The notes beneath the pieces are model-generated. The model did no database searches. It worked only from the letters and a program-made list of their open reading frames with translations, and had not been told where the DNA came from. From IMG/VR virus record IMGVR_UViG_3300045988_183163: a stretch of DNA of 64,000 nucleotides; one strand, written 5' to 3'. Positions 3,439 to 58,517 of the stretch are shown here, in pieces (position 1 is the first letter of the stretch; each line of letters starts with the position of its first letter). Position numbers and translations under genes: made by a program. Source of the DNA: a virus.

Positions 3439-3805
3439 ACCATCTTTGCTCAGCTAGGTCTTAATTAGACCGTGAACGAATGAACCATAGTCAGCTGTAT
3501 ATTGTTTGGCTTTGGCTTCGTGGCTGCTGATGATGGCGTCTACTCGCTAAATTATGTTTCGAATCATGGTAAAGTCCTCCTTGAAGGTTTGTAATTGTTA
3601 TACGGTATATATAAATACGCTCTTAACGCGGCGTTCGCGTGCAGGAACATTTATATAAACACATTGACGCTGTGTACGCGTGCTATGTTGATTAGCATAG
3701 CAATTCTATATAATCAGCCTTTCCTTCGGCTGTCAGAAGTCCACATTCCGTGGGATGAATCTATATTAAACGCAGAAAATCTGCGGGAATCCTCAAAAAG
3801 AAAAA

Positions 3806-3834
3806 GGACAGAAACCCAATATGGGCATCTGTCC
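3806..3834. terminator. bidirectional intrinsic terminator hairpin
   Basis: GGACAGAAACCCAATATGGGCATCTGTCC. On the minus strand it is followed by TTTTTCTTTTTG; on the plus strand by TTCTTCC. Confidence 0.5.
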
Positions 3835-4224
3835 TTCTTCCAGGAGGTATATGAACTATGGCAAATCAATGATATCTCTGTTACATTATCTATTTTATGG
3901 GTGTCGCACACGCCGTCAAGAAGCTGTATAAACTTTTTTGAAAAAAGTTTGCACGCGTGTTAGTGGCTTTTTAGAATGTTACAACATCGTGCAAAGTCGT
4001 GCAACATTGTGTTTAGTTCTCCGATACAGAGCAAACAAAAGATACTGTACCACTCCAATCACCTGGAGTCAGATTTGCTTTCACCGTATAGTTTGAGGTG
4101 ATACTAGCCAAGGCATCGTCACGTTTTCACGTTGTTTTGGGTGTTTCCACTATTATCGGGAAATCGCAAAAAATGTCAAAAAGAAAAAGCCGTCCACCAA
4201 ACGGTGAACGGCTTTCGTGACAAT

Positions 4225-8160: not shown

Positions 8161-8565
8161 TCAACGAGCGTTTGTGAATACGGCAACAACCAGCTCCTCG
8201 TAGTCTTCGATGGCACAGTAGATGTCAGCGAAACCATAGGCGTGGCCACGGTCGTAGGCTTTTTGCCAGAGGATGGTTGCAGCCTTTTTGGAAATGCTGC
8301 GTTTCGTTTCGGCTTTGATGTCTTCCTGAATTTGAAGTTCGATAGCTTCCGAGATGTGTTCGATTTCTGCATTCTGCGCCTTCTTCAGCCGAGAGCATTC
8401 CGCATCCCAGGCTTTCTGTCGGCGAACGACCTCTTCCCTGTTCCAGCGCACCGATTTCTCTTCGTCGATGATTTCACCGTCTTTCGGGCGTTTAGAGTTG
8501 GGCCTTGTTGGTCTTTTCCAAGCAGTTTCGAGTCGGTTGCCAAGATTTGTCCATACGTTATCCAT
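8161..8565 (-). CDS. hypothetical protein
   Basis: Start at MDNVWTNLG with RBS AAGGAG; charged, helical. Confidence 0.5.
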   Translation of the reverse strand: MDNVWTNLGNRLETAWKRPTRPNSKRPKDGEIIDEEKSVRWNREEVVRRQKAWDAECSRLKKAQNAEIEHISEAIELQIQEDIKAETKRSISKKAATILWQKAYDRGHAYGFADIYCAIEDYEELVVAVFTNAR

Positions 8566-8583: not shown

Positions 8584-8632
8584 TACGCAAAAAGGCGAAC
8601 CTCCCGGTGTGTGAAGTCCGCCTAAAAGCGAA
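8584..8632 (-). terminator. intrinsic terminator inside a promoter-proximal leader
   Basis: Minus-strand RNA forms the hairpin GGCGGACUUCACACACCGGGAGGUUCGCC followed by UUUUUGCG. It lies between promoter 8691..8718 and gene 8161..8565. Confidence 0.55.
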
Positions 8633-8635
8633 GTG

Positions 8636-8698
8636 TGAATTGTACGAGCACACAGTGTGCTTAGTAGATGGTATCTATCGTACAAGCTAAATTATACG
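8636..8698 (-). promoter_or_regulatory. conserved about 63-nt leader element (TTGTACGAtAGATAccATCTACT..GCACA....GTGCTCGTACAATTC), copy A
   Basis: It starts about 6 nt after the -10 box. It contains the inverted repeats TTGTACGA/TCGTACAA and two inner hairpins. A near-identical copy lies at 19182..19251. Confidence 0.5.
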
Positions 8699-8718
8699 GG
8701 TCTCGCACGAAAGCGCAA
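8691..8718 (-). promoter_or_regulatory. conserved promoter family copy (TTGCGC-N16-TATAAT)
   Basis: Minus strand reads TTGCGCtttcGTGCGAGacccgTATAAT. Confidence 0.5.
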
Positions 8719-8724
8719 GATTAT

Positions 8725-9579
8725 TCATCCATTGCTACAGTCACCAAACAGCAAATTATATGCTTTTTCGATTTCAGAATCAGACATGGCCTTCCCTTTT
8801 TCTTCAATGCTGTGCAGAATTAGAGTCTTGTCGCTCACATCCAGTTTGTTGCGATTTTCGTCCTGCGCAAGATACTCTTTGATTTCGGACCACTGCGCAT
8901 CACGCTGGTTCAGAGCGTCAACGTTCTGGACACAGAACGGGTACTCACTTTGCGGCATAGCACCGGAAAGGTATTTGGTATCGTCGCAATACATCTTGAT
9001 AAGCCGGACAATATAGTTCCGCTCTGCTTTGGTTCTCGCAGTCAGAATGTTGCTTGCGCTCTGGTACTTGTAGTTATCCCCAACAGCTTCCAACGACTCT
9101 GCAATCTGTCGAAAACTCAGCATTTCGTTTGTGGCCTTGTCATGCTGCGACACGGTGGAAGCATAGTATCCTTGTTCCGTTTCGTTTGCTTCTACCACGG
9201 CAGCGAGATTCGAGTCAATATGGATGAGCCGTTCACTGTTATCCCCTTGCGCACGAATTGTGTTGTTCACTTTCGCAATCCAACTGTCAGTTTCCGTAGC
9301 ATCATCGCCCGCATAGAGGTAGGTTACAATATCCGGGTTAGTAGGGTTCGGAAGTTCCGCACAAGCCAAGGTCAGATTTCGCCCGTATTCTTTTGCCTGA
9401 AGGTACATGTTCGGATAATCGTCTTGTATTGTCTGAGCGATTGCCTCAACCTCGGCCTCGTCTTTTTCAATGACAAGGCCGACAGTGGCTACCTGCTCTT
9501 CAATGTTGAGCTGCTTCAAAATATCCTCAAGGTCGAATACAATAGCTTCTTTGTTGTTTGTATAGAATCGGATTTTCAT
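8725..9579 (-). CDS. hypothetical protein
   Basis: Start at MKIRFYTNN with RBS AGGAGGAAAATCT. Confidence 0.5.
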   Translation of the reverse strand: MKIRFYTNNKEAIVFDLEDILKQLNIEEQVATVGLVIEKDEAEVEAIAQTIQDDYPNMYLQAKEYGRNLTLACAELPNPTNPDIVTYLYAGDDATETDSWIAKVNNTIRAQGDNSERLIHIDSNLAAVVEANETEQGYYASTVSQHDKATNEMLSFRQIAESLEAVGDNYKYQSASNILTARTKAERNYIVRLIKMYCDDTKYLSGAMPQSEYPFCVQNVDALNQRDAQWSEIKEYLAQDENRNKLDVSDKTLILHSIEEKGKAMSDSEIEKAYNLLFGDCSNG

Positions 9580-9662
9580 AGATTTTCCTCCTGGCAACAA
9601 TAAAAAAGGCAGGCCCTCGGTTGGAAGGTCTGCCAAAAAACAGTTTGAGAATTGCAAAAAGG

Positions 9663-11539: not shown

Positions 11540-12802
11540 TCACCTTCTTTCTGTAATATAATTTGTTGCGACTTCTAGTAGCCGCATTTTTTTGTAGGAC
11601 GCGCTATTAGAAACAACAGTACCGTCCAATTTTTTAAGAGCGAAGTATCCAGAAGTTCGTCTGCCTGTGATAAAGCATTCTGAGCCATTATAGGATACTT
11701 TGTCCCAAAGACGATAACCCTTTACGGTGTACGGAGCTTGATTAGCCTTGCGTATACCACCTTTTAGGATAGTTGCTTTGTGCAGCTGTCTGTTATGGTG
11801 GCGTATAGCCTTCGTGTAGTAGCAAGTATCGCAAGGTATGGCCAATGGGTTCTTGCTAATGCAGCGTGCATCGTTGGTGTGACTTTTAGGAATACTATGC
11901 TTCTCACGCAAGTACTTGGTTATGTAGCCATAAGTCCCTTGTACCGGAATCTTCAGCTCTTTAAGCAAGCGTTCCATAAGTGTCTTACGCATAACCCCCA
12001 TAAAAGCTGCATCTTTGAGAGACCTGCCACGTTTTTTGCCGTCAAGTGTTACTTTTCCAGCGTGTAGAGCTTTATGGCAAGCTGTGCATAGCGTGATAAG
12101 GTTGTTTGGCGCATTGCCACCTGTTCTACGGGTCTCGATATGATGCACATGCAGCTTTACAGCTTTTGTTTTTGTTGGATGCGCACCGCAGCATTGGCAC
12201 GTATAATTGTCACGCTTTAACACATACTGGCGTACATTGTACTCATCGTACATTTCACCAAGCTGATAGTCTGTGCCTACCGGCAGAGGTTTACCTTCCA
12301 GCATTGCTTTTAGACGTTGTGTGTCAAACTCTGCTGTTTCTACTCTGACGAACGTAACAGGCAAAATACGACATACTCGCTTGATAAGCGTAATGTGTTC
12401 TTGAATCTTGACCTCCACTGATGGCGCTAACCAGCCCTTATGCTTGCTATGCACTCTGTTGTTGAAACGCGGCGCACGGTAACGGGTTTTGCGGTTTCGC
12501 CTGCTGCGTCTGAAAGCACGGCGTGCAGAAAGCAAATCAACCACATCATTGCGTGGAGTTGCCTCTTCGCAATAGAGTTCGTACTTTTCAGTGGCAGCAG
12601 ATATGCCAATATGTTTGCTGCCTGCATCTACGCCCAAAGTAATAGGTTGTTTGTATCCTGTACTTCCATACAGGAGCTTGATTGTAAACGGTGTGCGTTT
12701 TACAACGCATGCTTTCTTCTGCTTTAACAATAAGCGAGCCTTGCGTGGAGAGCACGGCATCAAAGGTTCGCCGTGTTTGTTAAGCACATACACATATTGC
12801 AT
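11540..12802 (-). CDS. iscB: IscB, OMEGA RNA-guided nuclease (PLMP, split RuvC, HNH domains)
   Basis: PLMP motif HGEPLMPCSPRKARLL; RuvC-I LGVDAGSKHIG; Arg-rich bridge helix RRAFRRSRRNRKTRYR; RuvC-II VRVETAEFD; HNH CQCCG...HHIE...NLITLCTACH; RuvC-III SHTNDARC. 420 aa; RBS AAGGAG. Confidence 0.8.
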   Translation of the reverse strand: MQYVYVLNKHGEPLMPCSPRKARLLLKQKKACVVKRTPFTIKLLYGSTGYKQPITLGVDAGSKHIGISAATEKYELYCEEATPRNDVVDLLSARRAFRRSRRNRKTRYRAPRFNNRVHSKHKGWLAPSVEVKIQEHITLIKRVCRILPVTFVRVETAEFDTQRLKAMLEGKPLPVGTDYQLGEMYDEYNVRQYVLKRDNYTCQCCGAHPTKTKAVKLHVHHIETRRTGGNAPNNLITLCTACHKALHAGKVTLDGKKRGRSLKDAAFMGVMRKTLMERLLKELKIPVQGTYGYITKYLREKHSIPKSHTNDARCISKNPLAIPCDTCYYTKAIRHHNRQLHKATILKGGIRKANQAPYTVKGYRLWDKVSYNGSECFITGRRTSGYFALKKLDGTVVSNSASYKKMRLLEVATNYITERR

Positions 12803-13091
12803 GATACCATGCTCCTTTCTATTTGTGTGACAGCTAATGATAAGCTGTCCTCTCCTCCGAAGAGGAGTTACTTCCGAAGAAGCTAATCCTTCCCCAAAGT
12901 TATAAGCGGTTTAATGCAGCCACACCTGTTGTCTTTACCTCAGATTTCTTTGATGTGTTGCCTTAGAGCGTGCAGTTAGGATTAACGCCGCACGGTAACT
13001 ATCTATTCGCTTATAACGGAGTGCTCGAAGCACTTAGGGTAGTCAACATATCCTTTCGGACATTTCTAAAGCGTAGACTCGCTGATGCAAG
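12803..13091 (-). ncRNA. candidate omega-RNA of IscB (located 5' of iscB up to the LE hairpin)
   Basis: 290 nt with no ORF between the LE hairpin and the iscB start. It contains several GC-rich stems (for example GGAAGTAACTCCTCTTCGGAGGAG). The position matches the known IscB omega-RNA layout. Confidence 0.4.
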
Positions 13092-13111
13092 CCCGCGACT
13101 TTAGTCGTGGG

Positions 13112-13597
13112 TTATTGACGGGAATCAGCTTTCCTGAAATCAGAAAGTTGATTCTCAGTGGAACACTGCACGAAAGGAATTCCCGTGCGCGAATTCACAA
13201 AAACGTCTGTGGTAGCAAACGCATTGCCAAAACTCATGTCACAGAAAACGACGTGAGAACTTTCGTCACCAGATGCACGGGGCGCAAAGCTGGTACATGC
13301 AAACCAATCCAATTCATCCTGCCCCTGTTCATCATAAAGATAAATGACGGGAGCCGGAATGTTGGGCGTCGGCATAGCCAGTGAGCCAACCTGCATTTCA
13401 TTGACACAGAGGTCAATGGGCGGGTTCCCGTTCTGATAATCCCATTTGGGGTATGACTGAGCCCTGATGGTGGTGTCGCCATCATCTACCTCGATGCCAA
13501 GAGCAGCGATATCGAATGGAATACCGAGCTTTTCCTTGATTTCTTCCGGGGTGAAAGTTAGGAGCTTACCGTGTTCGCCTTGGATGTAGAGTCTCAT
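13112..13597 (-). CDS. hypothetical protein
   Basis: 161-aa ORF. Confidence 0.5.
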   Translation of the reverse strand: MRLYIQGEHGKLLTFTPEEIKEKLGIPFDIAALGIEVDDGDTTIRAQSYPKWDYQNGNPPIDLCVNEMQVGSLAMPTPNIPAPVIYLYDEQGQDELDWFACTSFAPRASGDESSHVVFCDMSFGNAFATTDVFVNSRTGIPFVQCSTENQLSDFRKADSRQ

Positions 13598-14192: not shown

Positions 14193-14432
14193 TCAAATCA
14201 TGCTATCAGACAATTTGTCGATAGCTGCCGTGATGGCTTCGTTTTCCATCTGAGCAATACGCTCAAACAAATGAGACCAGTCGATGGCATCATAGACACG
14301 CTTGACAAACGCATCATAGGTGCCACCGGCCTTCATCATTTCAATTTCAGATTCATAGCAGCCGGGCTCCTCAAGTATGAACTTGATATCGTCGGTTGGG
14401 TTGATTTGTATTGTTGCTTCGTACTCATTCAT
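14193..14432 (-). CDS. hypothetical protein
   Basis: Start at MNEYEATIQ (RBS GAAAGGAAATAATC). The upstream ATG sits inside the terminator hairpin. Confidence 0.45.
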   Translation of the reverse strand: MNEYEATIQINPTDDIKFILEEPGCYESEIEMMKAGGTYDAFVKRVYDAIDWSHLFERIAQMENEAITAAIDKLSDSMI

Positions 14433-14455: not shown

Positions 14456-14492
14456 ACGCAAAAAGGCGAACCACCCAAATGGGAAGTTCGCC
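14456..14492 (-). terminator. intrinsic terminator in a promoter-proximal leader
   Basis: Hairpin GGCGAACUUCCCAUUUGGGUGGUUCGCC followed by UUUUUGCG on the minus strand; it lies downstream of promoter 14562..14590. Confidence 0.55.
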
Positions 14493-14561
14493 TAAAGCGC
14501 ATTGTTAAGTGTGCGAAGGGCAGGGTGCCTTTTCGATAACTGTTATCTATCGTACATTTTT

Positions 14562-14590
14562 GATTATAGGCCGTTCGCATAAATCCGCAA
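14562..14590 (-). promoter_or_regulatory. conserved promoter family copy (TTGCGG-N16-TATAAT), followed by a diverged ATGTACGATAGATAAC element
   Basis: Minus strand reads TTGCGGatttATGCGAACggccTATAATcaaaaATGTACGATAGATAAC. Confidence 0.5.
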
Positions 14591-19123: not shown

Positions 19124-19172
19124 ACAAAAAAAGGCAGGCCCATCATGAAGATGAGTCTGCCTTGAATGAGAA
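19124..19172 (-). terminator. intrinsic terminator in a promoter-proximal leader
   Basis: Hairpin AGGCAGACUCAUCUUCAUGAUGGGCCUGCCU followed by UUUUUUUG on the minus strand; it sits between the leader element and gene 18206..19033. Confidence 0.55.
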
Positions 19173-19181
19173 CAGAATTAT

Positions 19182-19251
19182 GAATTGTACGAGCACGCGG
19201 TGTGCAAAGTAGATGTTATCTGTCGTACAACTTTAATACTATGGAATTCGC
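19182..19251 (-). promoter_or_regulatory. conserved leader element copy B (TTGTACGAcAGATAacATCTACT..GCACA....GTGCTCGTACAATTC)
   Basis: About 85 percent identical to 8636..8698, with compensatory changes in the inner stems. Confidence 0.5.
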
Positions 19252-19263
19252 AAGGATGTGCAA
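19236..19263 (-). promoter_or_regulatory. conserved promoter family copy (TTGCAC-N16-TAGTAT)
   Basis: Minus strand reads TTGCACatccTTGCGAATTCcaTAGTAT. Confidence 0.45.
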
Positions 19264-20809: not shown

Positions 20810-20963
20810 AGTATTCATCCTTTCTGAAATATTTTTGTTTCTAATCAGTACATACAAAAAAAGAAGCAGGCCCTCAAAAGAGAGTCTGCTTACTTGTGCA
20901 TGACAGATTGTTAATTTAATGTTCAATTAGGAGGTAAGTGATGGTATCTGTTATGCAATTATT

Positions 20964-23831: not shown

Positions 23832-24203
23832 ATGGACGCGACAATGCAGACGGTTCTCCGGCTCCATGAGCAAGGTATACCTAGAAGAACCATTGCCAAA
23901 CGTGCAGGCATCTCATTGCAGAAAGTGCGCAAAATACTGATTACGGCCGGGGCCTGGTCAGATGAAACATCAGAAAAAATCGGGAAGCTGCGTGCGAACG
24001 GTATGTCAGTTCCTGAAATTGCAGAAGAATTGGGTGTAAAAACCAATACTGTTTGGAGCTATTTGCCATACAGCAAAGGCATGTATAATCAAGAATATCC
24101 GACCATTAACGCCATTCGAGTCCGAAATTCGAAGCGAAAAGCAAAAGAAAAAGCCCTCACCTGCACGGATACCGCACAGAATGAGGGCAGTGGCGCTTGC
24201 TGA
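23832..24203 (+). CDS. helix-turn-helix DNA-binding protein (two HTH-like segments)
   Basis: IAKRAGISLQKVRKIL and MSVPEIAEELGVKTNTVWSYL. It is the only plus-strand gene in the first 50 kb. Confidence 0.45.
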   Translation: MDATMQTVLRLHEQGIPRRTIAKRAGISLQKVRKILITAGAWSDETSEKIGKLRANGMSVPEIAEELGVKTNTVWSYLPYSKGMYNQEYPTINAIRVRNSKRKAKEKALTCTDTAQNEGSGAC

Positions 24204-26138: not shown

Positions 26139-27080
26139 TTACGCTGCCTGTGTACTGAGTTTTTTGAGCTCAGGATACAGAACTTTAAGCGTGGCAAGTG
26201 TAACTTGGATTCTACGCTCAACATCCGGAACATTAGCCGAAAACTGAGACCTTACCATCGCTGGCAAGGGTTTTAGCAACTCTCTGACAAAGTAGCGAGC
26301 GCCAATATTGTAGCTCGCACTTAGGTCGCAGTTGTATTGTTTGCCGCTTGCAAACGTTGCAAGGGCACGATTGGTTTCATCACGCTCAAGAGCACCACTG
26401 CCATCAAAGGCGAGTTTGCTTGTGCCCCAAGCGCAGATACGCGAAATCCGGATACCACAGCGGTGTGCCTTCTGTGTCACATAATCCTGTATGGAATTAC
26501 GTTTCCACATTGTCAGCTTTTGTGCTTTACTGCCGCCGTGCTTTTTGCCTGTAAATGACAAATGTTCAAAAACAATCACATCTACAGAATAAAGCACAGC
26601 AAATTCAGTAATCGCAGCAGCAACCTTTTTCGCTATATCGTTATTCAAGGCTTTGGCGTAACGCCACATAGCTGCGGCGCTGTTGGAACCGTGCTCCCTT
26701 TGCTTACGCTTGATACGGTTAAGCACATGATACAGATGGTCTTTTTCACTCGGAAAATTGATAAATTTTCTTGCAAGGACAGTTCCATCGGCAGTCATGA
26801 TGCTGCACACGGCGTCAGTATTGAGACCAAGGTCTACAGCGCAGATACGCCTGTCTTGAATTTCAGTTTCAGAGAGTTCTACCTTCTCCACGAAAGCGAA
26901 GCGGAGAAAATATTTTCCGTACTTCTTTTCGAGGGAGGGAGCGCTCTTTTCGCAATGTGACCAGTATTTCGTGATGTATTTGACATCGGTGGCACGCATT
27001 GCAATAGGAATCCAAACCCAGTCATTGTTTTTATACAGCTTCAGATAGCACTGGTTTGGTTTGTTGCTTTCCTCATACAT
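26139..27080 (-). pseudogene. tnpB: TnpB-like (RuvC-I ICAVDLGLN, RuvC-II VIVFEHL, RuvC-III NCDLSASYNIGARY), lacking about 100 N-terminal residues and the CxxC...CxxC zinc finger
   Basis: 313-aa ORF. A 400-nt gap to tnpA has no ORF of 60 aa or more, while the frame stays open upstream of the first ATG. The zinc-finger cysteines are replaced (CAWGTSKLAFDGS). Confidence 0.5.
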
Positions 27081-30154: not shown

Positions 30155-30230
30155 TGGAGAAGGGAGATGGCCTCGAACCATCGATACCCTGCTTTGCGGC
30201 AGGTGCTTTATCCAGCTAAGCTATCCCTCC
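30155..30230 (-). tRNA. tRNA-Cys(GCA)-like with a 6-nt anticodon loop CGCAAA (U33 absent)
   Basis: Acceptor GGAGGGA/UCCCUUC, U73 (typical of Cys), D arm GCUU-AGCUGGAUAA-AGC, T arm GAUGG-UUCGAGG-CCAUC, anticodon stem CCUGC/GCAGG. Confidence 0.45.
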
Positions 30231-31105: not shown

Positions 31106-31581
31106 ATAAGATTGCGGGTGAACCCTCACTTAGCCCCGCCATGACATCCGTTTAGTAGGTCGTCATCCCCGGATGTCATCTTCACACCACCTGACAATCT
31201 TGCGAACCTCATCGTTGACGATACGCGAGAATCCAAGAAAGCGCTTGGGTGTTGGTCAACTTCAAATTTTGAGCCCTGTCGTTGATTCCCTGTCAAATCG
31301 GGTTAACGGTTGTCGTTGGGCTGTGTGTGAGACTGCAGCGAAACTTACCAGTTGCCGTGCAGCAATCTCGCCTTTACGGCTGTGTCGCGTCTGGATGCGC
31401 CCCGACTTGACGGGGATGCTCGTACGTTTGCATGCTTCTAAGACATTCGTCAGCAGCCGCAAGAGCCGCTGTCCGCCACCCGCCACGAGGAGGCCGCCTT
31501 AATGGGTGGCATGCTGTCCGCCAGATGTTGTGTATAGCATCGTATCATGTGATTTCGATACATCCAACGGATAGCGTCTGG

Positions 31582-31654
31582 AGCTGGAAATCGGACTTGA
31601 ACCGATGACCGACTGATTACAAATCAGTTGCTCTACCAGCTGAGCTAAACCAGC
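31582..31654 (-). tRNA. tRNA-Thr(UGU)
   Basis: Anticodon arm ACUGA-UUUGUAA-UCAGU; T arm AUCGG-UUCAAGU-CCGAU; two U-U mismatches at the base of the acceptor stem. Confidence 0.6.
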
Positions 31655-31696
31655 AAATACAAACATTAGCCAGATGCCCGGAACACGGAAACATCT

Positions 31697-31735
31697 GTTG
31701 CCCACCGTCCGCCGCGTGGAGGCTGTTTGCTTGGA
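31697..31735 (-). promoter_or_regulatory. structured motif copy 2 (stem CCGTCC/GGACGG around AGCCTCCACGCGGC, then TGGGCAAC)
   Basis: Lies immediately 5' of tRNA-Thr(UGU) on the minus strand. Confidence 0.4.
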
Positions 31736-32026
31736 CGGCTGGCGCGGAGTTACCCGCGCCAAATGGGAAATAAAGAGGTATGAAAGGAAGGATATTACTA
31801 TGAAACGGATGATTTTCACGCTTCACCTGTGTCAGCTCAAATGAAGCCATGCGACCAAGATTGGGGAAAGGAAAACCTTGATGTCTCAGGAGCCGTTCCT
31901 CTTCCTGAGAACAATTGTATTATACCATATATGTGGTATCCGGTCAATGAAAAGACACAATATATAGTGTCTAAATTGTAAACAAACATTAAGATACCAC
32001 TATATCTAGTGGTTGGGGCAAGCGCA

Positions 32027-34284: not shown

Positions 34285-35680
34285 ACATTGACACACTCCC
34301 ACGATTAAAATCGTGGGATTCTACTTCAACGAGGCCGCTGGCTGACCCAGTCTTACGCCTCTCGGTAACGGCATGGTGCCCCATCCGTGAGAGTATTTTT
34401 ACGCAGTGTAGCCCGTTTGAGTTAATCCCATACGGCATATATTGATAGCTGCATTGACGTCTCTTTCGTGGTGCGTGCCGCAAGATGGGCAATTCCACTG
34501 CCGCTGCTTGAGTGTGAGCTTCGGGTAGATGTACCCGCAGCGACTGCAGCACTTGCTGGATGGAGCGAAACGGTCAATTTTCACGACCTCCGTGCCACAG
34601 TTGGATGTTGTCCACTCAAGGATTTTGACAAACTCACCAAACGCTATATCATTGATTTTGCGTCCCCAGAGTTTTTGCATCCCTGCAAGATTTAAGTTTT
34701 CAATGCAGATGATAGCGTAATCCGCTATCAGTTGGTAAGCAACCTTAAAGAACCAATCGGTGCGTTGGTTACATATTTTTCGATAGATACGTTCCAACTC
34801 TTTAATTGCTTTCTTACGGTTATTACTTCCCGGCTTACAGCGTGAAATATGTCTTTGCACTCGCTGCAGCTCTTTCAGAGAGGCTTTATACCATTCAGGG
34901 GAATCTATCACGCTGCCGTCATCCAAGTTGAGGAAGTGCTTCAAGCCAAAATCCATCCCGACAGCTTTACCTGCTCGTGGAAGAATTTCATTACATTCCT
35001 CTTGGGTGACGACAAAGAGGTAGACATCACCTAAATTGTCGCGCTTGACGGTTAAGGTTTTCACTTTACCCTTCAAAGGACGAGAATCGAAATAGCGATA
35101 CTTCTTACCATTGATGGTGACGCTGCCTTTGCCGTCAAACTTATAGCCTGCCTGTTTGAGCGTGAAGCTTTTATACATCTCGCGCTTCTTAAATTTCGGC
35201 AGCGACTTCTTGGTAGGATGCGCCTTTTTCTTATTATCAAAATAGGCTTTATAGGCGCGGTCAACGCGCTCCACCACATCCTGAATAGCTTGGCTGCCAA
35301 GATTGTGCCAGTGACCCCACTTGCGGCGCTTGCAGATTTTAGCAATGTACTTTTTCAAATCATTGGCTTTAAGCGTTTTGCCATAGACCAAATAGTACAT
35401 ACGCCGCATAGCAATGCAAAAATTCCAAATCTCGGAGGCTATTTCTATCTGCTGAACAAGATACTTGTTCTTCTTGTTGTTATACAGTTTGTACTTGTAG
35501 GTTTTCATTACAAGACGAATGAGTAGTAGCCTCCTTTTCTTTAGAATCTACTATCTATGGTACGCAATTCGCACGCTTTGACAGCAAAAAATGCTGTCCA
35601 TCTTGCGGATATGCAGCGTGAATTGATTCGTTCTTAACGCCTTTCATCCCACGACTAAAGTCGTGGGTTTTCCCGGCTTG
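34285..35680 (-). mobile_element. IS200/IS605-like element carrying tnpB only
   Basis: LE hairpin CCCACGACTAAAGTCGTGGG at 35648..35667 and RE hairpin CCCACGATTAAAATCGTGGG at 34298..34317 flank an intact tnpB. Confidence 0.65.
34399..35508 (-). CDS. tnpB: TnpB (RuvC-like RNA-guided nuclease, IS605 OrfB family)
   Basis: 369 aa; N-terminus MKTYKYKLYNN; RuvC-I GMDFGLK; RuvC-II IICIENL; zinc finger CSRCG...CPSCG; RuvC-III HERDVNAAINI. Its omega-RNA is expected to overlap the 3' end and RE (about 34290..34520). Confidence 0.8.
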   Translation of the reverse strand: MKTYKYKLYNNKKNKYLVQQIEIASEIWNFCIAMRRMYYLVYGKTLKANDLKKYIAKICKRRKWGHWHNLGSQAIQDVVERVDRAYKAYFDNKKKAHPTKKSLPKFKKREMYKSFTLKQAGYKFDGKGSVTINGKKYRYFDSRPLKGKVKTLTVKRDNLGDVYLFVVTQEECNEILPRAGKAVGMDFGLKHFLNLDDGSVIDSPEWYKASLKELQRVQRHISRCKPGSNNRKKAIKELERIYRKICNQRTDWFFKVAYQLIADYAIICIENLNLAGMQKLWGRKINDIAFGEFVKILEWTTSNCGTEVVKIDRFAPSSKCCSRCGYIYPKLTLKQRQWNCPSCGTHHERDVNAAINICRMGLTQTGYTA

Positions 35681-36759: not shown

Positions 36760-36786
36760 AAAAAAAGAAGGCTGCTACCCGTGATG
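36760..36786. terminator. bidirectional intrinsic terminator between promoter 36877..36904 and gene 35859..36650
   Basis: GGCTGCTACCCGTGATGGGCGGCAGCC, flanked by an A-run upstream and TTTTGTCTT downstream. Confidence 0.5.
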
Positions 36787-36876
36787 GGCGGCAGCCTTTT
36801 GTCTTAAAAAAGAAAACGAGAACGCCGTCGGCAACGGAGTCTTCGCAAAAGATAGTTCTTTTTGATTGCGGTTTTA

Positions 36877-36904
36877 ATTATATGGAACCCGCAATGCATT
36901 GCAA
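36877..36904 (-). promoter_or_regulatory. conserved promoter family copy (TTGCAA-N16-TATAAT)
   Basis: Minus strand reads TTGCAAtgcaTTGCGGGTtccaTATAAT. Confidence 0.45.
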
Positions 36905-40394: not shown

Positions 40395-40478
40395 GCATTT
40401 CCTTTCCGCAAACAAAAAGCCCCGCACAAGCAATTCATGCGGGGCAGCGATTCGATATACTTCTACTTTATATTTGCT

Positions 40479-40506
40479 ATTGTACGCAATTCGCACAGAT
40501 TAGCAA
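40479..40506 (-). promoter_or_regulatory. conserved promoter family copy (TTGCTA-N16-TACAAT)
   Basis: Minus strand reads TTGCTAatctGTGCGAATTGCGTACAAT. Confidence 0.5.
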
Positions 40507-43687: not shown

Positions 43688-44326
43688 TCATAGTCCTTTG
43701 ACAAAATTCGGGTCGTAGTGGGACAGGACTTCCTCGTTCAAGCTGTATTCGCAGTTGATAGTCGTTGCGTCATCCACATACATGCCTCGGTTTGCGTAGT
43801 ATATTCCATCAATATAAATGGCGAACATGACGGACGGCATCAGTGCCTTTTCATTCACTGCGTAAATCAGGTATTCATCCAGATTATCCTTGACCACCGC
43901 GCTCTTATTGATTTGGGCGATTTGCTGTCCGCCAAGAAATACAGGGCAGCATACTCCTTCTTTTCCAAAACCAATTTTGTAGCTCTGGTATTCCTCGCCA
44001 TACAGCTGCATGGCGATAGAATTGTATCCTTGGAGGAATCCGGTTTTTGTATGGATGACGGAAATCTCGCCTACCGTGCAGTTGTTCTCACGGATAGCAA
44101 AAGGGTGTCTCAGAATATCTTTTGTGTTGATGCCGCGCATGTACGCCCTTGCGTCAGCAGCTGGCATGTATTGCAGCAGGAACTTGGAATCATTCAGCCG
44201 GATGCCATAACCCTGCCGTAGCAATTTCGGGATATAGTGTGCCTGCCCGATAACGGCCTTGCCTTTCACGATATCGAAGGTGAACTCATATCCTTTCGAT
44301 TTGGTTTGCTTCACAATCCATTGCAA
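43688..44326 (-). CDS. hypothetical protein
   Basis: 212-aa ORF. Confidence 0.5.
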   Translation of the reverse strand: MQWIVKQTKSKGYEFTFDIVKGKAVIGQAHYIPKLLRQGYGIRLNDSKFLLQYMPAADARAYMRGINTKDILRHPFAIRENNCTVGEISVIHTKTGFLQGYNSIAMQLYGEEYQSYKIGFGKEGVCCPVFLGGQQIAQINKSAVVKDNLDEYLIYAVNEKALMPSVMFAIYIDGIYYANRGMYVDDATTINCEYSLNEEVLSHYDPNFVKGL

Positions 44327-44753
44327 GACTCATCGCCTCCTTTTGCCTTCTCACTCGCTGGATAACCTTGTAAATACCAGGAACCGAGAGCTGATATTTT
44401 TCGGATAGTTTCTGCACCGGCACACCACTCTCGTATTCTCGAAAGATATTCTCATTGCGGGGTTTTTGCCGAATTTTGATGCGCTCATTTCTACGGTTTT
44501 CAGTCAGGCCCGCATCGTTGGCAACCATGCTGCAATATCCTTCTGCCACGTTAAATTTCGCAATCATTTCCTTGAGAGGGACACTGTTCTTGTATGCCGC
44601 AAGAATTTCGGCCTTTCTAGCATCCTCTACCTGCGCCAACTGAATTCTGGCCTCCTGTTTCGCGTCGTCTAACGCTCGATAGCATGTACGGACGCTCAAC
44701 CTGTATTTTGCGGCAAGCTCCTCAATGGAATAGCCGTTGCCGTAGTCTTTCAT
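44286..44753 (-). CDS. DNA-binding protein with two sigma-70 region-4-like / resolvase-type HTH repeats (start uncertain)
   Basis: Repeats YSIEELAAKYRLSVRTCYRAL and VPVQKLSEKYQLSVPGIYKVI. The ORF-track start at 44864 lies upstream of promoter 44837..44864, so it was trimmed to the next ATG. Confidence 0.4.
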   Translation of the reverse strand: MKDYGNGYSIEELAAKYRLSVRTCYRALDDAKQEARIQLAQVEDARKAEILAAYKNSVPLKEMIAKFNVAEGYCSMVANDAGLTENRRNERIKIRQKPRNENIFREYESGVPVQKLSEKYQLSVPGIYKVIQRVRRQKEAMSLAMDCEANQIERI

Positions 44754-44836
44754 GATATTGCAATTTCGCTCAATCAACTTTTTGCTTGCAAATTTTGAGA
44801 TGGTACTCAACTCCTTTGCTTTACGCTTTATTTCTG

Positions 44837-44864
44837 ATTGTCTGCAATTCGCACAAATGGGCAA
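44837..44864 (-). promoter_or_regulatory. conserved promoter family copy (TTGCCC-N16-GACAAT)
   Basis: Minus strand reads TTGCCCatttGTGCGAATTGCAGACAAT. Confidence 0.45.
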
Positions 44865-45656: not shown

Positions 45657-45711
45657 AGGGCACTTCTTCCTTCCGTCTCAAAGACAATTTGCCGGGACTG
45701 TCTCCCGTTGC

Positions 45712-45745
45712 CCGCTGCTCGCCGCGTGGAGGCTGTCTTTTGGAG
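45712..45745 (-). promoter_or_regulatory. structured motif copy 3 (stem GCTGCTC/GAGCAGC around AGCCTCCACGCGGC, then GGGCAAC)
   Basis: Lies between the VWA gene stop and the next gene. Confidence 0.4.
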
Positions 45746-45775
45746 CAGCTGCGCGGACAAAACCGCGCTTTTGAG

Positions 45776-48495: not shown

Positions 48496-50139
48496 TTAAT
48501 CTTTGGCCTTTTTGTCTTTCATGATAGCCTTCTCTTCTTCGGTCACATCCGGTCGAAAATGAGTGACTTCCTCACCGTTGAGACTCTTCTCATGAATTAG
48601 ATAGCCGCCTTCTACGCGTTCCATAGCATTGACACCTCCTTCCTTTTCACTATTCACAGGCTGTTCGCCTTGATTCATGATGTTGATGTTGCGGTCGGTC
48701 TTTGCCTGGATGCTGTTGGCACGGACAATTTCGCCCATGTCGATTCCGGTCGCTTCTTTCACCGTCTGCATGGTTTGAGCCATCAGGATAGGAACGTTCC
48801 CGGAAACGCCGGATACGCCGGAGGCGTCACCGCCAATGATAGAAACCTTATCAATGCTGGACAAAGGCTGAGCCACGCTTTTGGCAATGTCAGGAAGAAC
48901 CTTGATGAGCATTTCAGCCACAGCCGCATCGTTATACTGCTTATATGCCTCTGCTTTCTGTTTCATGGCTTCCGCTTCAGCCAAGCCTTTCTGACGAATC
49001 GCTTCAGCTTCTGCCTTACCGACAAGTTCAATGCCTTCTGCTTCCTGCTGCTTGGAGAACTTCTGTGCCTCAGCTGCACGTTCCGCCTCATATTTCTTGG
49101 CTTCTGCCTCTTTCTGGCGGCGGTACAGGTCAGCATCTGCCTGTTTGCGGACTTCCGCATCCAGTTTGCGTTGCTGGACCTCGGCTTCCTGTGCGGCAAG
49201 GTCTACCATTTTCTTCTGCTTGGCGATTTCAGCATCCGCTTCCGCTTCTTTGATTTCTTTGGCGCGGAGATTCATCTGAATCTGACCGGCAGCATCTGCG
49301 TCAGCCGCAGCTTTATCAGCTTCAGCTTTCAGCTTTGCCTTGGCGAGCTGCAATTCATTGTTGCGTTTTGCAATCGCAGTCTGCGCTTCAACTTCCTTGG
49401 CATTTGCAGCCATCTCAGCATCGGCCTTCGCGCAGGCTACATCACGGGCAGCCTGAGCACGGGCAATTTCAGCCTGTTTTTTCACAAGCTCTTCCTGTTC
49501 AATGCCGATAGCCTCAATGACGCCGTGGTTGTGGCCCTGAACATCCACCGCATCCCTGATATCCTGGACGTTAAAAGTCACGACCTCAAGTCCCATCTTA
49601 GCAAGGTCGGGGCGAGCATTCTCGATAACGCTCACAGCCATCTGCTTGCGGTTCGTCAGAATTTGGTCGACGGTCATGTCAGAGACAATCTCACGCAAAT
49701 TGCCCTGCAGAACGTCATTAACTTTCTCATTGATGCCCTGCTCGTTCATGCCCAGAAAGTTCGAGATGGCTGCCTGTTGGCGGGACATGATGTACGCCTT
49801 GGCGTCTTTCAGACCGGATGCCTTCACTTCTTCATCCAGAACGGTAGAGTTTTCGCTGTAGACTTGAATCGTGACAACAGAGTCAATCCAGAGACTTACG
49901 CCGTTCTTCGTCTTAACACCTGTTTCAGGAGTTTTGACGTCAATTTTCAGAAGGCGCATATTTAGCCGGTCAGCCCGCTGAAGAACGGGCAGAACAAATG
50001 TACCTTTTCCGCAAACTACTTTAGGCTTAGACAGACCAAAGCCGGTCACAACGATAGCCTCCGTGGGCGGAGCTTTCTTGTAGCAGAGAAATCCAAAGAG
50101 AATAATCAGGGCTGCCACAATCGCAATCACATATACCAT
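48496..50139 (-). CDS. flotillin-like SPFH/band-7 domain protein
   Basis: N-terminal TM helix, SPFH domain (VVTGFG...KIDVKTPE...), a long Ala/Glu-rich coiled coil, and a C-terminal flotillin-type region; 547 aa. Confidence 0.75.
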   Translation of the reverse strand: MVYVIAIVAALIILFGFLCYKKAPPTEAIVVTGFGLSKPKVVCGKGTFVLPVLQRADRLNMRLLKIDVKTPETGVKTKNGVSLWIDSVVTIQVYSENSTVLDEEVKASGLKDAKAYIMSRQQAAISNFLGMNEQGINEKVNDVLQGNLREIVSDMTVDQILTNRKQMAVSVIENARPDLAKMGLEVVTFNVQDIRDAVDVQGHNHGVIEAIGIEQEELVKKQAEIARAQAARDVACAKADAEMAANAKEVEAQTAIAKRNNELQLAKAKLKAEADKAAADADAAGQIQMNLRAKEIKEAEADAEIAKQKKMVDLAAQEAEVQQRKLDAEVRKQADADLYRRQKEAEAKKYEAERAAEAQKFSKQQEAEGIELVGKAEAEAIRQKGLAEAEAMKQKAEAYKQYNDAAVAEMLIKVLPDIAKSVAQPLSSIDKVSIIGGDASGVSGVSGNVPILMAQTMQTVKEATGIDMGEIVRANSIQAKTDRNINIMNQGEQPVNSEKEGGVNAMERVEGGYLIHEKSLNGEEVTHFRPDVTEEEKAIMKDKKAKD

Positions 50140-50403
50140 AATTTTTGTTTCTCCATTCGTAAAATAGTAATAAAACTATAAGTCAGGACTTGCGTCCTGT
50201 GGTCCACTTCGCCAATGTTATGCACTGTTTTAGCCTTTCGACATGACGCTCGCACTTCTCCTCCCCTCGGAGATGTTTAACGAAACGCCTGCAGAGCTCA
50301 CCACTTGTGGAGCATGGATAAGGTGCCTATATTATTAGTACACAACGTAGTTTTCCCCACTGCCGGAGCAATGGGCTTAGGCTAACCAACCGGGCTTACG
50401 GGT

Positions 50404-50458
50404 TGCCCCGCAAGCCCCGTCTATAACCGGCGAGCCGGTTTAGGCGGGGTTGTTGACA
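50404..50458. repeat. 55-bp inverted-repeat arm (partner at 63946..64000), including the last 6 codons of the lipoprotein gene and a GNRA-tetraloop hairpin
   Basis: 54/55 identity to the reverse complement of 63946..64000. It contains GGGCUUGCGGG-GCAA-CCCGUAAGCCC. Confidence 0.6.
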
Positions 50459-51157: not shown

Positions 51158-51205
51158 TTTGACGAAACTTGCGAACAGCATACAATAAGTGTTGTACGAC
51201 AGATA
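51158..51205 (+). promoter_or_regulatory. conserved promoter family copy on the plus strand (TTGACG-N16-TACAAT), followed by TTGTACGACAGATAA
   Basis: TTGACGaaacTTGCGAACagcaTACAATaagtgTTGTACGACAGATAA; a terminator hairpin at 51244..51276 follows. Confidence 0.5.
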
Positions 51206-51243
51206 ATAAACCGACATCAACCATTCATAATCTGACAAATTCA

Positions 51244-51276
51244 GACAGGCACCAATCGGGTGACCTGTCTTTTTTG
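51244..51276 (+). terminator. leader terminator downstream of promoter 51158..51185
   Basis: GACAGGCACCAATCGGGTGACCTGTC followed by TTTTTTG; it precedes gene 51316..51666. Confidence 0.5.
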
Positions 51277-51315
51277 TTATGAGACCGCGTAATGCGGAGA
51301 AAGATGAGGATTACC

Positions 51316-51666
51316 ATGACCACTATTATGAACACCGCCGAATTCATCCGCGTTACCGACCTTCTGAAGAAGGAAAAGATTGCCAAGAGCAGCGGCAACA
51401 TATTTGCTGCTATGATGGCGATGCGCGAGAACCGCCCCGAAGCAATCTGCGCAGATGGCTTCAAGATGTCCATTCAGGCATCCGATGAGCACTACTGCCA
51501 GAAGACCGATGACGGGAGCTATGCGAGCGTAGAAATCGGGTTTCCGTCTTCGTCCGAGTCCCTGCTCGACGATTATGGTGATGACGGAGTGTACGGCTAT
51601 GTGCCGCTCACTGTTGTCGATGCCATCATCGCCAAGCACGGTGGAATCCTGCTCGATGAGCAGTAA
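51316..51666 (+). CDS. hypothetical protein
   Basis: Start at MTTIMNTAEF (RBS GAGGA); 116 aa. Confidence 0.4.
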   Translation: MTTIMNTAEFIRVTDLLKKEKIAKSSGNIFAAMMAMRENRPEAICADGFKMSIQASDEHYCQKTDDGSYASVEIGFPSSSESLLDDYGDDGVYGYVPLTVVDAIIAKHGGILLDEQ

Positions 51667-57567: not shown

Positions 57568-58517
57568 AAAAGCGCCCTTGCACAAAACATGAGGGAGATT
57601 TCCGGGCGTTTGGAGAAATACCCATAGGACTTTGAGCTTTGCTGCACAAAAACAAGCCTCCGCTCTTTGGCGGGGGCTCTTCTTGTATTCTCAAAAACGT
57701 TGAATTTAATTTCACTGAATTCCGATTCAGCATTATTTGGCGTGGCTCAGCTTGGCCCGACAGCACGATACCATGGCGGCCGAACACAATGATTCTCCAG
57801 AACGGAATTCTCGACATTCGGTGCGAATCGTATATAATCTAAATAATAAAACAGTATAGGAATATAGCTAAGCCGCCAAGCGAGTGAAATCGTTTGGTGG
57901 CTTTTCTTTTTGCTACGGAAAAGTAGACATTGTACTTGTCATGAGCTTGTTGCATACTTGCTACGAACTTGCTAAAAACTTGCTAAGCACTTGCTACGCT
58001 TCACCTCGAAGCAAGTTCATTTTTTTTGCGCGAAAGAATATCGGATAAGTGACGCTTCTTACTCGTATGACCGAGAGAAAACATGCAAAGACTCTACCAT
58101 TCTGGTAGGGCTTTTTTGCTGCCCAAAAAGTTGGAAAAATGTCGCAAGCGAGCCGCTGAAACCTCGGAATTTTGTCGCAGCCTTTCCGAATATGAGATGT
58201 ATCTCACAAAAGCGAAATGCGCTGCTTCGTATCTGTGGTGAGACAATCGGAACAGGCAAATAGCAAAATCTCAGCTGCCGCAAATGCTGTCAAGTTCAAA
58301 TCACAACTCCCAAAAGTTTCGTTTGGGAAAGCCTGCATTAAAAGTTTCGTTCTGGAAAATGCAGAGGGGAAAGGAAAATGTCGAAGCATATATGCACTGA
58401 TTTTCTTCTTGCTATTTGTGCAATCCGCTCAAATTGGCGATAAATATTCCCAAAATAAATAAGTCAAAGTGCTTTTGGTGTATAATGGCTCTGACAAACA
58501 GAAAAAAGGAGAACACT

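Follow-up and report, generated by a model that had tools for sequence, protein, structure and literature searches.

Here, we examine a putative leader RNA in a stretch of viral DNA of 64,000 nucleotides (nt), the IMG/VR record IMGVR_UViG_3300045988_183163, the whole of which is referred to as the window. The leader is located at 8584-8718 on the minus strand, where a promoter is followed by a conserved, folded element, then by an intrinsic terminator, and only then by the gene. This arrangement had been noticed at four loci in a preliminary description, and had been regarded as a candidate antitermination or attenuation switch. The window holds at least five to six copies of the leader, which lie behind sigma-A-type promoters in a non-structural region, and these copies belong to a family of more than 100 distinct sequences, in which a small three-way junction at the 5' end goes together with a strong terminator.

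Leader copies and promoters in the window

The promoter of the leader at 8584-8718 (copy A) occupies 8691-8718 on the minus strand, with the -35 box TTGCGC at 8718-8713, the pentamer TGCGA at 8707-8703 and the -10 box TATAAT at 8696-8691. It is followed by a three-way junction of 46 nt (8685-8640), composed of the helices P1 (UUGUACG/CGUACAA), P2 (UAGAU-ACC-AUCUA) and P3 (GCACAC..GUGUGC). The linker UUCACACUUCGCUUUU (8624-8639), which is unpaired in the minimum free energy (MFE) fold and for which the family consensus is AAUUCACAAUUYYG, leads to an intrinsic terminator of type 1 (8589-8623), that is, GGCGGACUUC...GAGGUUCGCC and a run of five U. The downstream gene has its Shine-Dalgarno (SD) sequence at 8577-8573 and its ATG at 8565. 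The leader folds with an MFE of -30.2 kcal/mol (z score, z, -4.6), and scores 91.9 bits with the covariance model of the family.

The same order, namely the family promoter, (T)TGTACGAYAGATA, a G+C-rich hairpin with a T-run, then an SD sequence and, further on, a start codon, is present at all four loci reported at first (copies A to D). With no more than one mismatch, TGTACGAYAGATA occurs at exactly four sites in the window, 8672-8684, 14544-14556 and 19217-19229 on the minus strand and 51193-51205 on the plus strand, compared with 0.11 expected, and none of 100 shuffles reaches four. Some details in the preliminary description have to be corrected. The motif had been placed at about +6; in all copies the 5' block begins 5-6 nt past the -10 hexamer, and so coincides with the expected start site or lies no more than 1-2 nt from it. 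The element had been given as a unit of 63 nt, while in the two best copies (8685-8640 and 19230-19185) TTGTACGA...TCGTACAA measures 46 nt. The compensatory changes said to distinguish these two copies are not found, as their differences in P3 (GCACACUGUGUGC versus GCACACCGCGUGC) are located in the loop or break one pair; such changes are abundant only once the wider family is included.

Copy B (19124-19263, minus strand) has its -35 box at 19263-19258, TGCGA at 19252-19248 and the -10 box at 19241-19236, and continues with a junction of 46 nt (19230-19185), a linker (19184-19164) and a terminator of type 2 at 19163-19126 (GGCAGACUCAUC..GAUGGGCCUGCC and a run of seven U). It scores 94.6 bits, with an MFE of -31.0 kcal/mol (z -5.3). 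A ribosome-binding site had been described behind each terminator; here AGGAGG is indeed present directly after it but lacks a start codon, and the gene, which encodes a protein with a Phage_lysozyme2 domain, begins at 19033, about 90 nt further. Copy C (14456-14590, minus strand; TGCGA at 14579-14575, -10 box at 14568-14563, leader at 14557-14460, ATG at 14432) carries a variant junction with P2 GAUAAC/GUUAUC, P3 GGCA/UGCC and a weakened P1, and ends in a type-1 terminator at 14493-14460 (57.1 bits, z -3.5). A separate terminator lies at 14619-14601, just upstream of its promoter. For copy D (51159-51276, plus strand), the -35 box is at 51159-51164, TGCGA at 51170-51174, the -10 box at 51181-51186, the leader at 51192-51274, the terminator at 51243-51276 and the ATG at about 51304-51316 (25.5 bits, z -3.1). 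Its 5' block pairs with the linker (UUGU/ACAA and CAGAU/AUCUG), and there is no dedicated 3' strand of P1.

The four copies first listed are not the only ones. A diverged fifth copy has its promoter TGCGA at 20980-20976, its leader at 20958-20860 on the minus strand and a type-2 terminator (30.2 bits, E value 8e-4, z -4.3), and its altered 5' block UGCAU.ACAGAU pairs with an equally altered partner, AUCUGU.CAUGCA, over 11 base pairs (bp). At 9603-9657 (minus strand; 25.9 bits), there is a linker with a type-2 terminator only, without promoter or junction. This unit directly follows the stop codon TGA at 9664-9662 and is itself followed by an SD sequence and an ATG at 9579; the gene 9579-8725 (minus strand) is thus boxed in by this unit and the unit of copy A, and has no family promoter of its own. 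The arrangement is kept in syntenic orthologues on two other contigs (L071 and L073), and the unit is probably a remnant of a leader. In addition, probable degenerate copies lie behind the promoters at 3908 (minus strand) and 63692 (plus strand). The former spans 3801-3908, with AAUGUAACAGAGAUAUC... after the promoter and the terminator GGACAGAUGCCC..GGGUUUCUGUCC with a U run (18.9 bits, E value 0.12).

The copies are mosaic, since the junction is common to copies A and B and the terminator to copies A and C. All window leaders fold as a 5' domain and a terminator hairpin, with z from -3.1 to -5.3 against shuffles, and in all copies, including copy D and the one at 20958, the 5' end is closed in a helix just before the terminator.

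The family promoter is sigma-70/sigma-A-like and has the form TTGnnn-(~5)-TGCGA-N6-TAnnAT, with a conserved core inside the spacer: TGCGA sits 6 nt upstream of the -10 box, at a spacer position that normally carries no information. The core TGCGA-N6-TAnnAT has 15 sites in the window against 0.54 expected, and family promoters are found, for example, at 950, 11406, 35573, 41228 and 50873 on the minus strand and at 57822 and 63692 on the plus strand. TGCGA is present at family promoters both with and without the leader, and also at those without any terminator; therefore, it is a feature of the promoter and is not linked to the terminator. At 40495 (minus strand; 40400-40495) and 57822 (plus strand; 57822-57910), the promoter is followed by an unrelated leader that also ends in a pre-gene terminator, as do unrelated leaders of about 80-120 nt at loci L013, L027, L030, L052 and L057. 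Consequently, the order of promoter, terminator and gene is a broader habit than this RNA family. The promoter and leader hairpin also reported at 36760-36904 are present, in the form of a variant promoter (TGCGG) followed by a hairpin with an A-run, a stem and a T-run.

Extent, anatomy and fold of the family

Scanning IMG/VR with a 15-mer revealed at least 119 loci, with at least 102-108 distinct leader sequences and up to 7 copies per 13 kilobases (kb) of contig. Among the matches listed, the family promoter is directly upstream in 103 of 136 raw matches. An element confined to the window copies would, according to the preliminary description, have made a weaker case for an RNA; instead, more than 100 distinct homologues occur in related phages. 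To avoid the circularity of selecting on the 5' block, we also sampled by the linker alone: all 38 true members obtained in this way carry the exact 5' block, 37 of them have the promoter and all 38 the terminator, and the remaining 30 matches are chance occurrences inside genes. Anchoring on the promoter only yields diverged 5' versions (TGCATGATAGATACC, TGAACGATAGATACC and others), which identify GATAGATAMC as the most conserved core.

The leaders have a median length of 103 nt (range 83-124), of which the three-way junction takes up the 5' 29-52 nt. In P1, the very 5' end UUGUACGA is paired with UCGUACAA; P2 reads UAGAU-AMC-AUCUA or occurs as a register variant, and the sequence of the P3 hairpin is free. 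The junction is connected by a single-stranded linker of 12-25 nt (AAUUCACAAUUYYG; median 18, standard deviation 2.5) to a terminator of one of two sequence types, GGCGGACUUC... (type 1) or GGCAGACUCA... (type 2). Whole hairpins are dispensable, as minimal members measure 85 nt, and the spacing of the two halves of P1 ranges from about 13 to 36 nt across members.

The matches in bacterial genome collections are at chance level apart from contigs of 'Clostridiales bacterium' metagenome-assembled genomes (MAGs). For example, at least 9 leaders with family promoters lie on the 224-kb contig DYBQ01000001.1 ('Clostridiales bacterium HRGM_Genome_2451'; loci L147, L152, L155, L171, L180 and L195), which is probably a large phage genome that was binned as a bacterial MAG. 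The leader was not found in any deposited phage. Presumably, the family belongs to a clade of large uncultivated gut phages of Clostridiales/Firmicutes and marks their early-type promoters. The linker with its terminator was also considered as a general terminator class of these phages, and this was rejected, because promoter-less cases are rare and look like remnants.

It should be noted that a similar linker turned up elsewhere. On the AT-rich viral contigs L250 (300-760, minus strand), L221, L236, L244 and L290, which are unrelated, a promoter is followed after about 35-50 nt by ATTCACAATTTCGCT, which is fused to a different terminator hairpin whose stem changes are compensatory between copies. 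At least four of these units stand in tandem on L250, and they have a 15-nt linker in common with the leaders studied here.

The leader sequence was not found in the literature searched, which did not extend to the sequence supplements of the structured-RNA catalogues. Large catalogues with candidate structured RNAs were compiled from IMG/VR and human microbiomes (PMC10690425, PMC8040213), and the family may be listed there without a name. Apparently, the family has not been described so far; more than 100 sequences and a covariance model (R1) now exist for it.

The structure prediction and covariation analysis proposed in the preliminary description both speak for a folded RNA. For 22 hand-picked members, 92.7% of the cells at paired columns can pair, compared with 33-42% when the partners are slid, and 12 pairs have changed on both sides. 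For 100 distinct members in a covariance-model alignment, which leans towards the structure of the model used to build it, the value is 92.1% versus 35-50% with slid partners. Here, 18 of 29 pairs have changed on both sides, including all 5 pairs of P3 and 10 of the 12 terminator pairs, and no shuffle reaches the observed values of pairing and covariation. At the paired columns, G·U outnumbers A·C by 59 to 20 in P3 and by 149 to 12 in the terminator, and this excess indicates that the transcribed strand is under selection; a cruciform or an antisense reading of these helices is ruled out by the same bias. P1 and P2 are conserved in sequence without covariation, with G·U to A·C ratios of 9:35 and 20:36, respectively, and the support for their pairing comes from the diverged copies and from complementarity that is kept although the spacing varies, rather than from statistics.

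Then, could the conserved sequence act as DNA? The nearest precedent, also invoked in the preliminary description, is lambda PR'-qut-tR' (summarised in PMC11658703), where Q works from one late promoter only and its qut site is part of the DNA. In such a mechanism, a protein would bind TGCGA in the spacer and load on a polymerase paused at a -10-like hexamer, the RNA fold being secondary. The likeness includes a terminator about 100-200 nt past the promoter, a short RNA as the predicted default product, the conserved spacer sequence with its excess of sites, and a hexamer of the form NANNAT in the initial transcribed region: TACGAT at motif positions 4-9 is present in 93 of 100 members and TAMCAT at positions 13-18 in 68 of 100, both recognised by sequence, so that pausing there is putative. 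The pre-gene terminators without a junction at some family promoters (e.g., 40495 and 57822) and the conservation of P1 and P2 without covariation would also fit. However, TGCGA is likewise found at terminator-free promoters, NANNAT is common by chance in A/T-rich sequence, and a mechanism acting on DNA only does not explain the covariation and the sense-strand G·U bias of P3. No Q-family protein was seen among the about 75 window proteins scanned, and Q systems use one late promoter, not many early-type ones. The lambda analogy thus fits less well, and we consider a DNA-level mechanism of this kind very unlikely.

A three-way junction followed by a terminator also resembles the layout of purine-type riboswitches, and the leader could in principle sense a metabolite or an ion; or else the halves of P1, TTGTACGA / TCGTACAA, which form an inverted repeat overlapping the start site, could be a DNA operator pair for an early-promoter repressor. 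For a riboswitch, the unrelated downstream genes, the dozens of copies per genome and the dispensability of whole hairpins in the minimal 85-nt members are all unexpected, and neither an alternative fold (in the MFE folds) nor an Rfam match was obtained. For an operator, the spacing of the half-sites would have to vary over about 13-36 nt, and the copy at 20958 has changed both halves complementarily, which fits RNA pairing better than a fixed protein site. Both ideas are therefore highly improbable.

In the MFE folds of the window leaders, no competing fold was found, and the junction and the terminator are independent domains, which suggests control via the polymerase or a factor rather than by refolding. 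The only candidate for an antiterminator helix, between YYGY of the linker and the 5' arm of the terminator, has 78.4% of its cells paired, compared with 76.2% in shuffles, and one covarying pair. The types of linker and arm are associated 75:2, and the seven recombinants that occur are wobble-compatible; inheritance as a block could explain the association. An Rfam 15 scan of the whole window at gathering thresholds gave no match at any leader locus, and in permissive scans of the loci of copies A and B the terminator hairpins alone were matched, with 8-19 bits, which is far short of the gathering scores.

Several other identities were tried and rejected. A leader peptide could be read from TTG-TAC-GAY-AGA-TAA (M-Y-D-R-stop, with a synonymous Y), while the common GATACC variants, copy A among them, have lost the stop codon, and an SD sequence is missing; thus, the reading is a coincidence. 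The linker of type 1 contains CGCUUUUA, which is like the lambda boxA, and copy B contains UGUUCUCAUUCAA, which loosely resembles the boxA of Firmicutes rrn operons, but the other type-2 linkers (UGCAAAUAAAUGG) show no resemblance, so that boxA is not a general part of the leader. As for a two-hairpin target of the ANTAR/RAT type, the loops are not ANTAR hexaloops and the hairpins do not overlap the terminator. A CRISPR-repeat mimic, an omega-RNA and a retron non-coding RNA do not fit the architecture and the hypervariable P3, and no associated reverse transcriptase or Cas gene is present.

Terminator coupling and possible function

The 5' element and the terminator are strongly coupled. Among 147 distinct promoters, a pre-gene terminator is present at 97 of the 100 with the element versus 18 of the 47 without it (odds ratio 52, p 3e-15). 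Two of the three exceptions with the element merely have degraded T-runs, and about half of the 18 element-less promoters with a terminator carry diverged versions of the element. Compared with the terminators at the ends of cassettes on the same contigs, the leader terminators have longer stems (12 versus 10 bp, p 0.002) and are more stable (-18.7 versus -17.0 kcal/mol, p 0.017). They are not built to leak. Extra-long terminator stems would be expected if the polymerase were processively resistant (PMC10325885); the cassette-end terminators are of ordinary length and no such stems were seen among them. Processive antitermination balanced by long-stem resistant terminators was rejected for this reason, and since ordinary terminators close most cassettes, any effect on read-through would be of short range.

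An SD sequence and a start codon follow the leader in 106 of 108 members, the median distance from the T-run being 28 nt, and a further promoter would not fit in between. Just upstream of the promoter, 68 of 120 contexts have a second terminator, so that access to the gene is only by way of the leader terminator. In 43 of 120, the upstream open reading frame (ORF) runs into the promoter without a terminator of its own, and here the leader terminator also ends the upstream transcripts. The downstream genes, which are mostly ORFans, encode 130 distinct proteins in 36 unrelated clusters, such as an MBL-fold lipoprotein, YopX, NT5C (5'-nucleotidase) and a tail-lysozyme-like protein, along with many small acidic ORFans. 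This diversity indicates that the control is generic and not gene-specific.

Based on these observations, we tentatively favour, at somewhat less than even confidence, a cis-acting antitermination or attenuation checkpoint on early genes, probably of short range. Transcription would start at or next to UUGUACGAYAGAUAMC, and the first 46-50 nt or so would fold as the three-way junction, with P1 closed by the very 5' end of the RNA. The polymerase would then meet the strong intrinsic terminator past the conserved linker and, by default, would stop after about 100 nt and release a short RNA with both ends in helices, so that the downstream gene would be expressed only upon read-through. The invariant 5' junction, together with the linker, would be the cis element that licenses or regulates this read-through, either as a docking site for a trans-acting phage or host factor, by a logic like that of N/nut or LoaP, or by acting on the polymerase itself, as in put, conAn2 or canT. 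As no refolding is apparent, control via the polymerase or via a factor that recognises the junction is favoured. What stands from the idea of a switch is thus a conserved structured RNA tied to a terminator, for which the checkpoint is the best fit, while an alternative antiterminator fold is not seen in the MFE folds. The proposal builds on features that are directly established, that is, the anatomy, conservation, fold and strand specificity of the leader, the coupling of element and terminator, the terminator strength and the diversity of the genes.

Several points weigh against such a checkpoint. The start site, termination in vivo, the control of read-through and the identity of any factor are all inferred from sequence. 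It is not evident what an antiterminator acting by itself would achieve directly in front of its own terminator, unless it tells polymerases apart, and the same anatomy fits a small-RNA gene equally well. No antiterminator-like protein is recognisable in the 64-kb window, where N-like proteins would be hard to detect. P1 and P2 do not covary, and the 5' block may have a role at the DNA level, as the initial transcribed sequence, a pause site or an operator. The helix between the linker and the 5' arm of the terminator pairs barely above the level of shuffles. Moreover, the 18 of 47 element-less promoters that have a pre-gene terminator mean that read-through may not depend on this RNA, and the gene 9579-8725 lies behind a terminator without any junction.

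Alternatively, the short RNA could itself be the product. The phage would then use strong early promoters to make many paralogous stable RNAs of about 100 nt, which would act in trans, for example as a decoy or sponge for a host protein or RNA, or as base-pairing small RNAs via the 5' block or the linker, and the downstream genes would be expressed by residual read-through only. A comparable division is known from type III toxin-antitoxin loci, in which a terminator sets the ratio of RNA to protein. As in a small-RNA gene, a family promoter and a strong terminator delimit a transcript of about 100 nt, whose 5' end is locked in P1 and whose 3' end is locked in the terminator hairpin; the strong terminators suit this explanation as well as they suit a switch, the many copies per genome would give a high dose, and the sequence blocks are invariant while the stems drift, as is expected of a binding surface or a seed. 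However, the most conserved block is largely base-paired in P1 and P2, which is unusual for a seed, and no complementary target sites were found within the window apart from the leaders' own opposite strands. The SD sequence and start codon in 106 of 108 members, and the upstream terminator in 68 of 120 contexts, make the leader promoter the gene's only promoter. We therefore regard the short RNA as a possible but rather unlikely product. If it is the product, the phages would flood the cell with stable RNAs that have a 16-nt block in common, and an as yet unknown host target would be suggested.

Another alternative is a constitutive cassette without any switch, in which the junction stabilises the messenger RNA, the terminator is a partial insulator or attenuator, and the unit of about 150 bp spreads by recombination. 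The paired 5' end would shield the transcript from 5'-dependent RNases, and the terminator would scale down a very strong promoter. The mosaic, repeated units, the diverse ORFans flanked by them in a non-structural region, the leader terminators that also end upstream transcripts (43 of 120) and the remnant of linker and terminator that acts as a plain intergenic terminator are all in line with it. There is also a precedent in the PeSL cassettes of T4, composite motifs mediating shuffling, where a stem-loop just upstream of the promoter is followed by the SD sequence (PMC4122927, PMC2839356). Like PeSLs, the leaders are short repeated composites of promoter and terminator beside variable ORFans in plastic regions, and their mosaic make-up suggests recombination between copies. 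In contrast, PeSLs have the reversed order, with the stem-loop ahead of the promoter, and lack a conserved folded leader, while here the promoter is followed by the folded leader, the terminator and the SD sequence. In addition, leader terminators that are stronger than those at gene ends would be odd for a leaky valve, an insulator would be redundant where an upstream terminator exists (68 of 120), and a stabiliser would need only a 5' stem, and not an invariant 16-nt block, a linker and a third hairpin. Consequently, a constitutive cassette seems unlikely.

Among known systems, the leader would work most like put, conAn2 or canT, yet it differs from them in size, architecture, copy number and similarity. 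The putL site of phage HK022 starts at transcript position 3, forms two hairpins and contains a -10-like hexamer, for which a sigma-dependent pause that aids folding has been proposed (PMC9378689). Similarly, the leader places a structured RNA directly after an early promoter, within what would be the first transcribed nucleotides, has two hairpins and a -10-like NANNAT hexamer inside the element, and is present at more than one promoter of the phage. A put-type logic would also explain how a canonical terminator is passed without an alternative RNA fold. The comparison with put made in the preliminary description is thus the better one as far as anatomy is concerned, but it does not extend to sequence or structure: on the complete HK022 genome, with filters off, the best match of model R1 reaches 15 bits (E value 0.45) and lies outside the PL/PR region. 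Moreover, put (about 70 nt, with two long stems in a V shape) acts in E. coli and is present twice, whereas the leader comes from phages of a Firmicute host, a closing stem formed with the 5' end surrounds the two hairpins of its 46-52-nt element, a strong terminator follows 12-25 nt on, there are dozens of copies per genome, and the cassette-end terminators argue against action over 10 kb. For put, the action consists in binding the beta' zinc-binding domain of RNA polymerase, which is made terminator-resistant without protein factors.

A more specific version of put-type action deserves mention. The 46-nt junction might be the smallest self-acting RNA antiterminator and the first in Firmicutes phages, and it might serve as a promoter-specific, short-range 'pass'. 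The junction would fold while sigma holds the polymerase at the -10-like hexamer, would dock on the polymerase and would carry it through the terminator 12-25 nt on, so that only polymerases from cognate promoters pass, and this licence would be repeated at dozens of single-gene cassettes per genome. We consider this version speculative and of low probability.

From Firmicutes contexts, two larger RNAs are relevant to the checkpoint. The conAn2 element of the pLS20 family alone acts only at short range (PMC8191782), and the terminator T1 of Tn916 is an insulator that is passed only by transcripts containing canT (PMC11658703). Like these, the leader lies between a promoter and one or more terminators, and its action in cis is proposed by analogy. 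However, conAn2 (260-600 nt) and canT (about 340-450 nt) are much longer than the junction (29-52 nt), and each is found a single time in its element, heading a long operon, while the leaders recur up to 7 times per 13 kb at many single-gene cassettes. The conAn system also has a protein partner, ConAn1, and none was recognised here in the window.

As regards a docking site, lambda N-nut is a case of factor-dependent antitermination in which the factor is recruited by a small hairpin. In Firmicutes, the protein LoaP is recruited to the elongation complex by a small hairpin of the leader RNA, and both leader and operon terminators are passed (PMC12691694). Unlike in these systems, the window shows no recognisable NusG paralogue or N-like protein, and the boxA-like CGCUUUUA is confined to type-1 leaders and is inconsistent across the family.

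If the junction does control read-through, it would represent a new and very compact class of leader-RNA antitermination, and the first many-copy, genome-wide control layer for the early genes of phages of Gram-positive hosts, as the RNA antiterminators known so far (put, EAR, conAn2, canT) come in one or two copies and, for the most part, are much larger. A terminator-override element of 46 nt would then also be useful as a part in synthetic biology and for studies of nascent RNA and polymerase. In either case, the family marks the early promoters and the early ORFans, which are candidate host-takeover or anti-defence genes, of widespread gut phages.

Window content and other RNA elements

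No near-identical DNA was found among deposited phages. The window encodes a NAD ligase, a helicase sharing about 50% identity with its counterparts in Faecalibacterium and Streptococcus phages, an ImpB-type polymerase, VWA and SPFH proteins, and HNH/IscB and TnpB elements, as well as 17 tRNAs between 24191 and 31654, all on the minus strand. Its ribosome-binding sites are strong (AGGAGG), and no structural genes were recognisable among its proteins in Pfam and PHROGs scans. From these features, the window appears to be the non-structural (early or accessory) part of a large uncultivated phage with a Clostridia-like Firmicutes host.

The search for a Q-like or other antiterminator protein suggested in the preliminary description yielded no convincing candidate: none of the about 75 window proteins, which represent part of the genome, belongs to the Q, N, NusG/LoaP or sigma families by Pfam and PHROGs. 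Small basic proteins like N were represented in the window only by spurious ORFs over tRNAs and by two weak candidates. The only clear transcription factors in the window are a Mor-family/helix-turn-helix (HTH) protein (PHROG 'late transcriptional activator') at 44286-44864 on the minus strand and a double-HTH protein of 123 amino acids at 23832-24203 on the plus strand, which adjoins the tRNA block on the opposite strand.

Other RNA elements were also observed. Two HDV-like ribozymes (Rfam HDV-F-prausnitzii) lie at 31659-31739 and 45680-45749 on the minus strand, the first of which directly adjoins tRNA-Thr (31579-31654), and the tRNA predicted at 30155-30230 is odd in having a 2-nt 'anticodon'. 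Two matches to HEARO, the omega-RNA of IscB, are above the Rfam gathering threshold, both on the minus strand. The one at 12879-13119 lies ahead of the RRXRR/HNH IscB ORF at 11540-12802 (minus strand), which is the expected arrangement. For the one at 50197-50457, the next ORF on the strand encodes an SPFH/flotillin protein (48496-50139) and not IscB, and this omega-RNA may therefore have been orphaned or relocated. A second, weak TnpB-like ORF lies at 26139-26999 (minus strand), while the TnpB gene at 34399-35508 (minus strand; OrfB_IS605 and Cas12f1-like TNB) is driven directly by the family promoter at 35573. It thus appears that the phage has tied genes of RNA-guided nucleases to its own promoter system.

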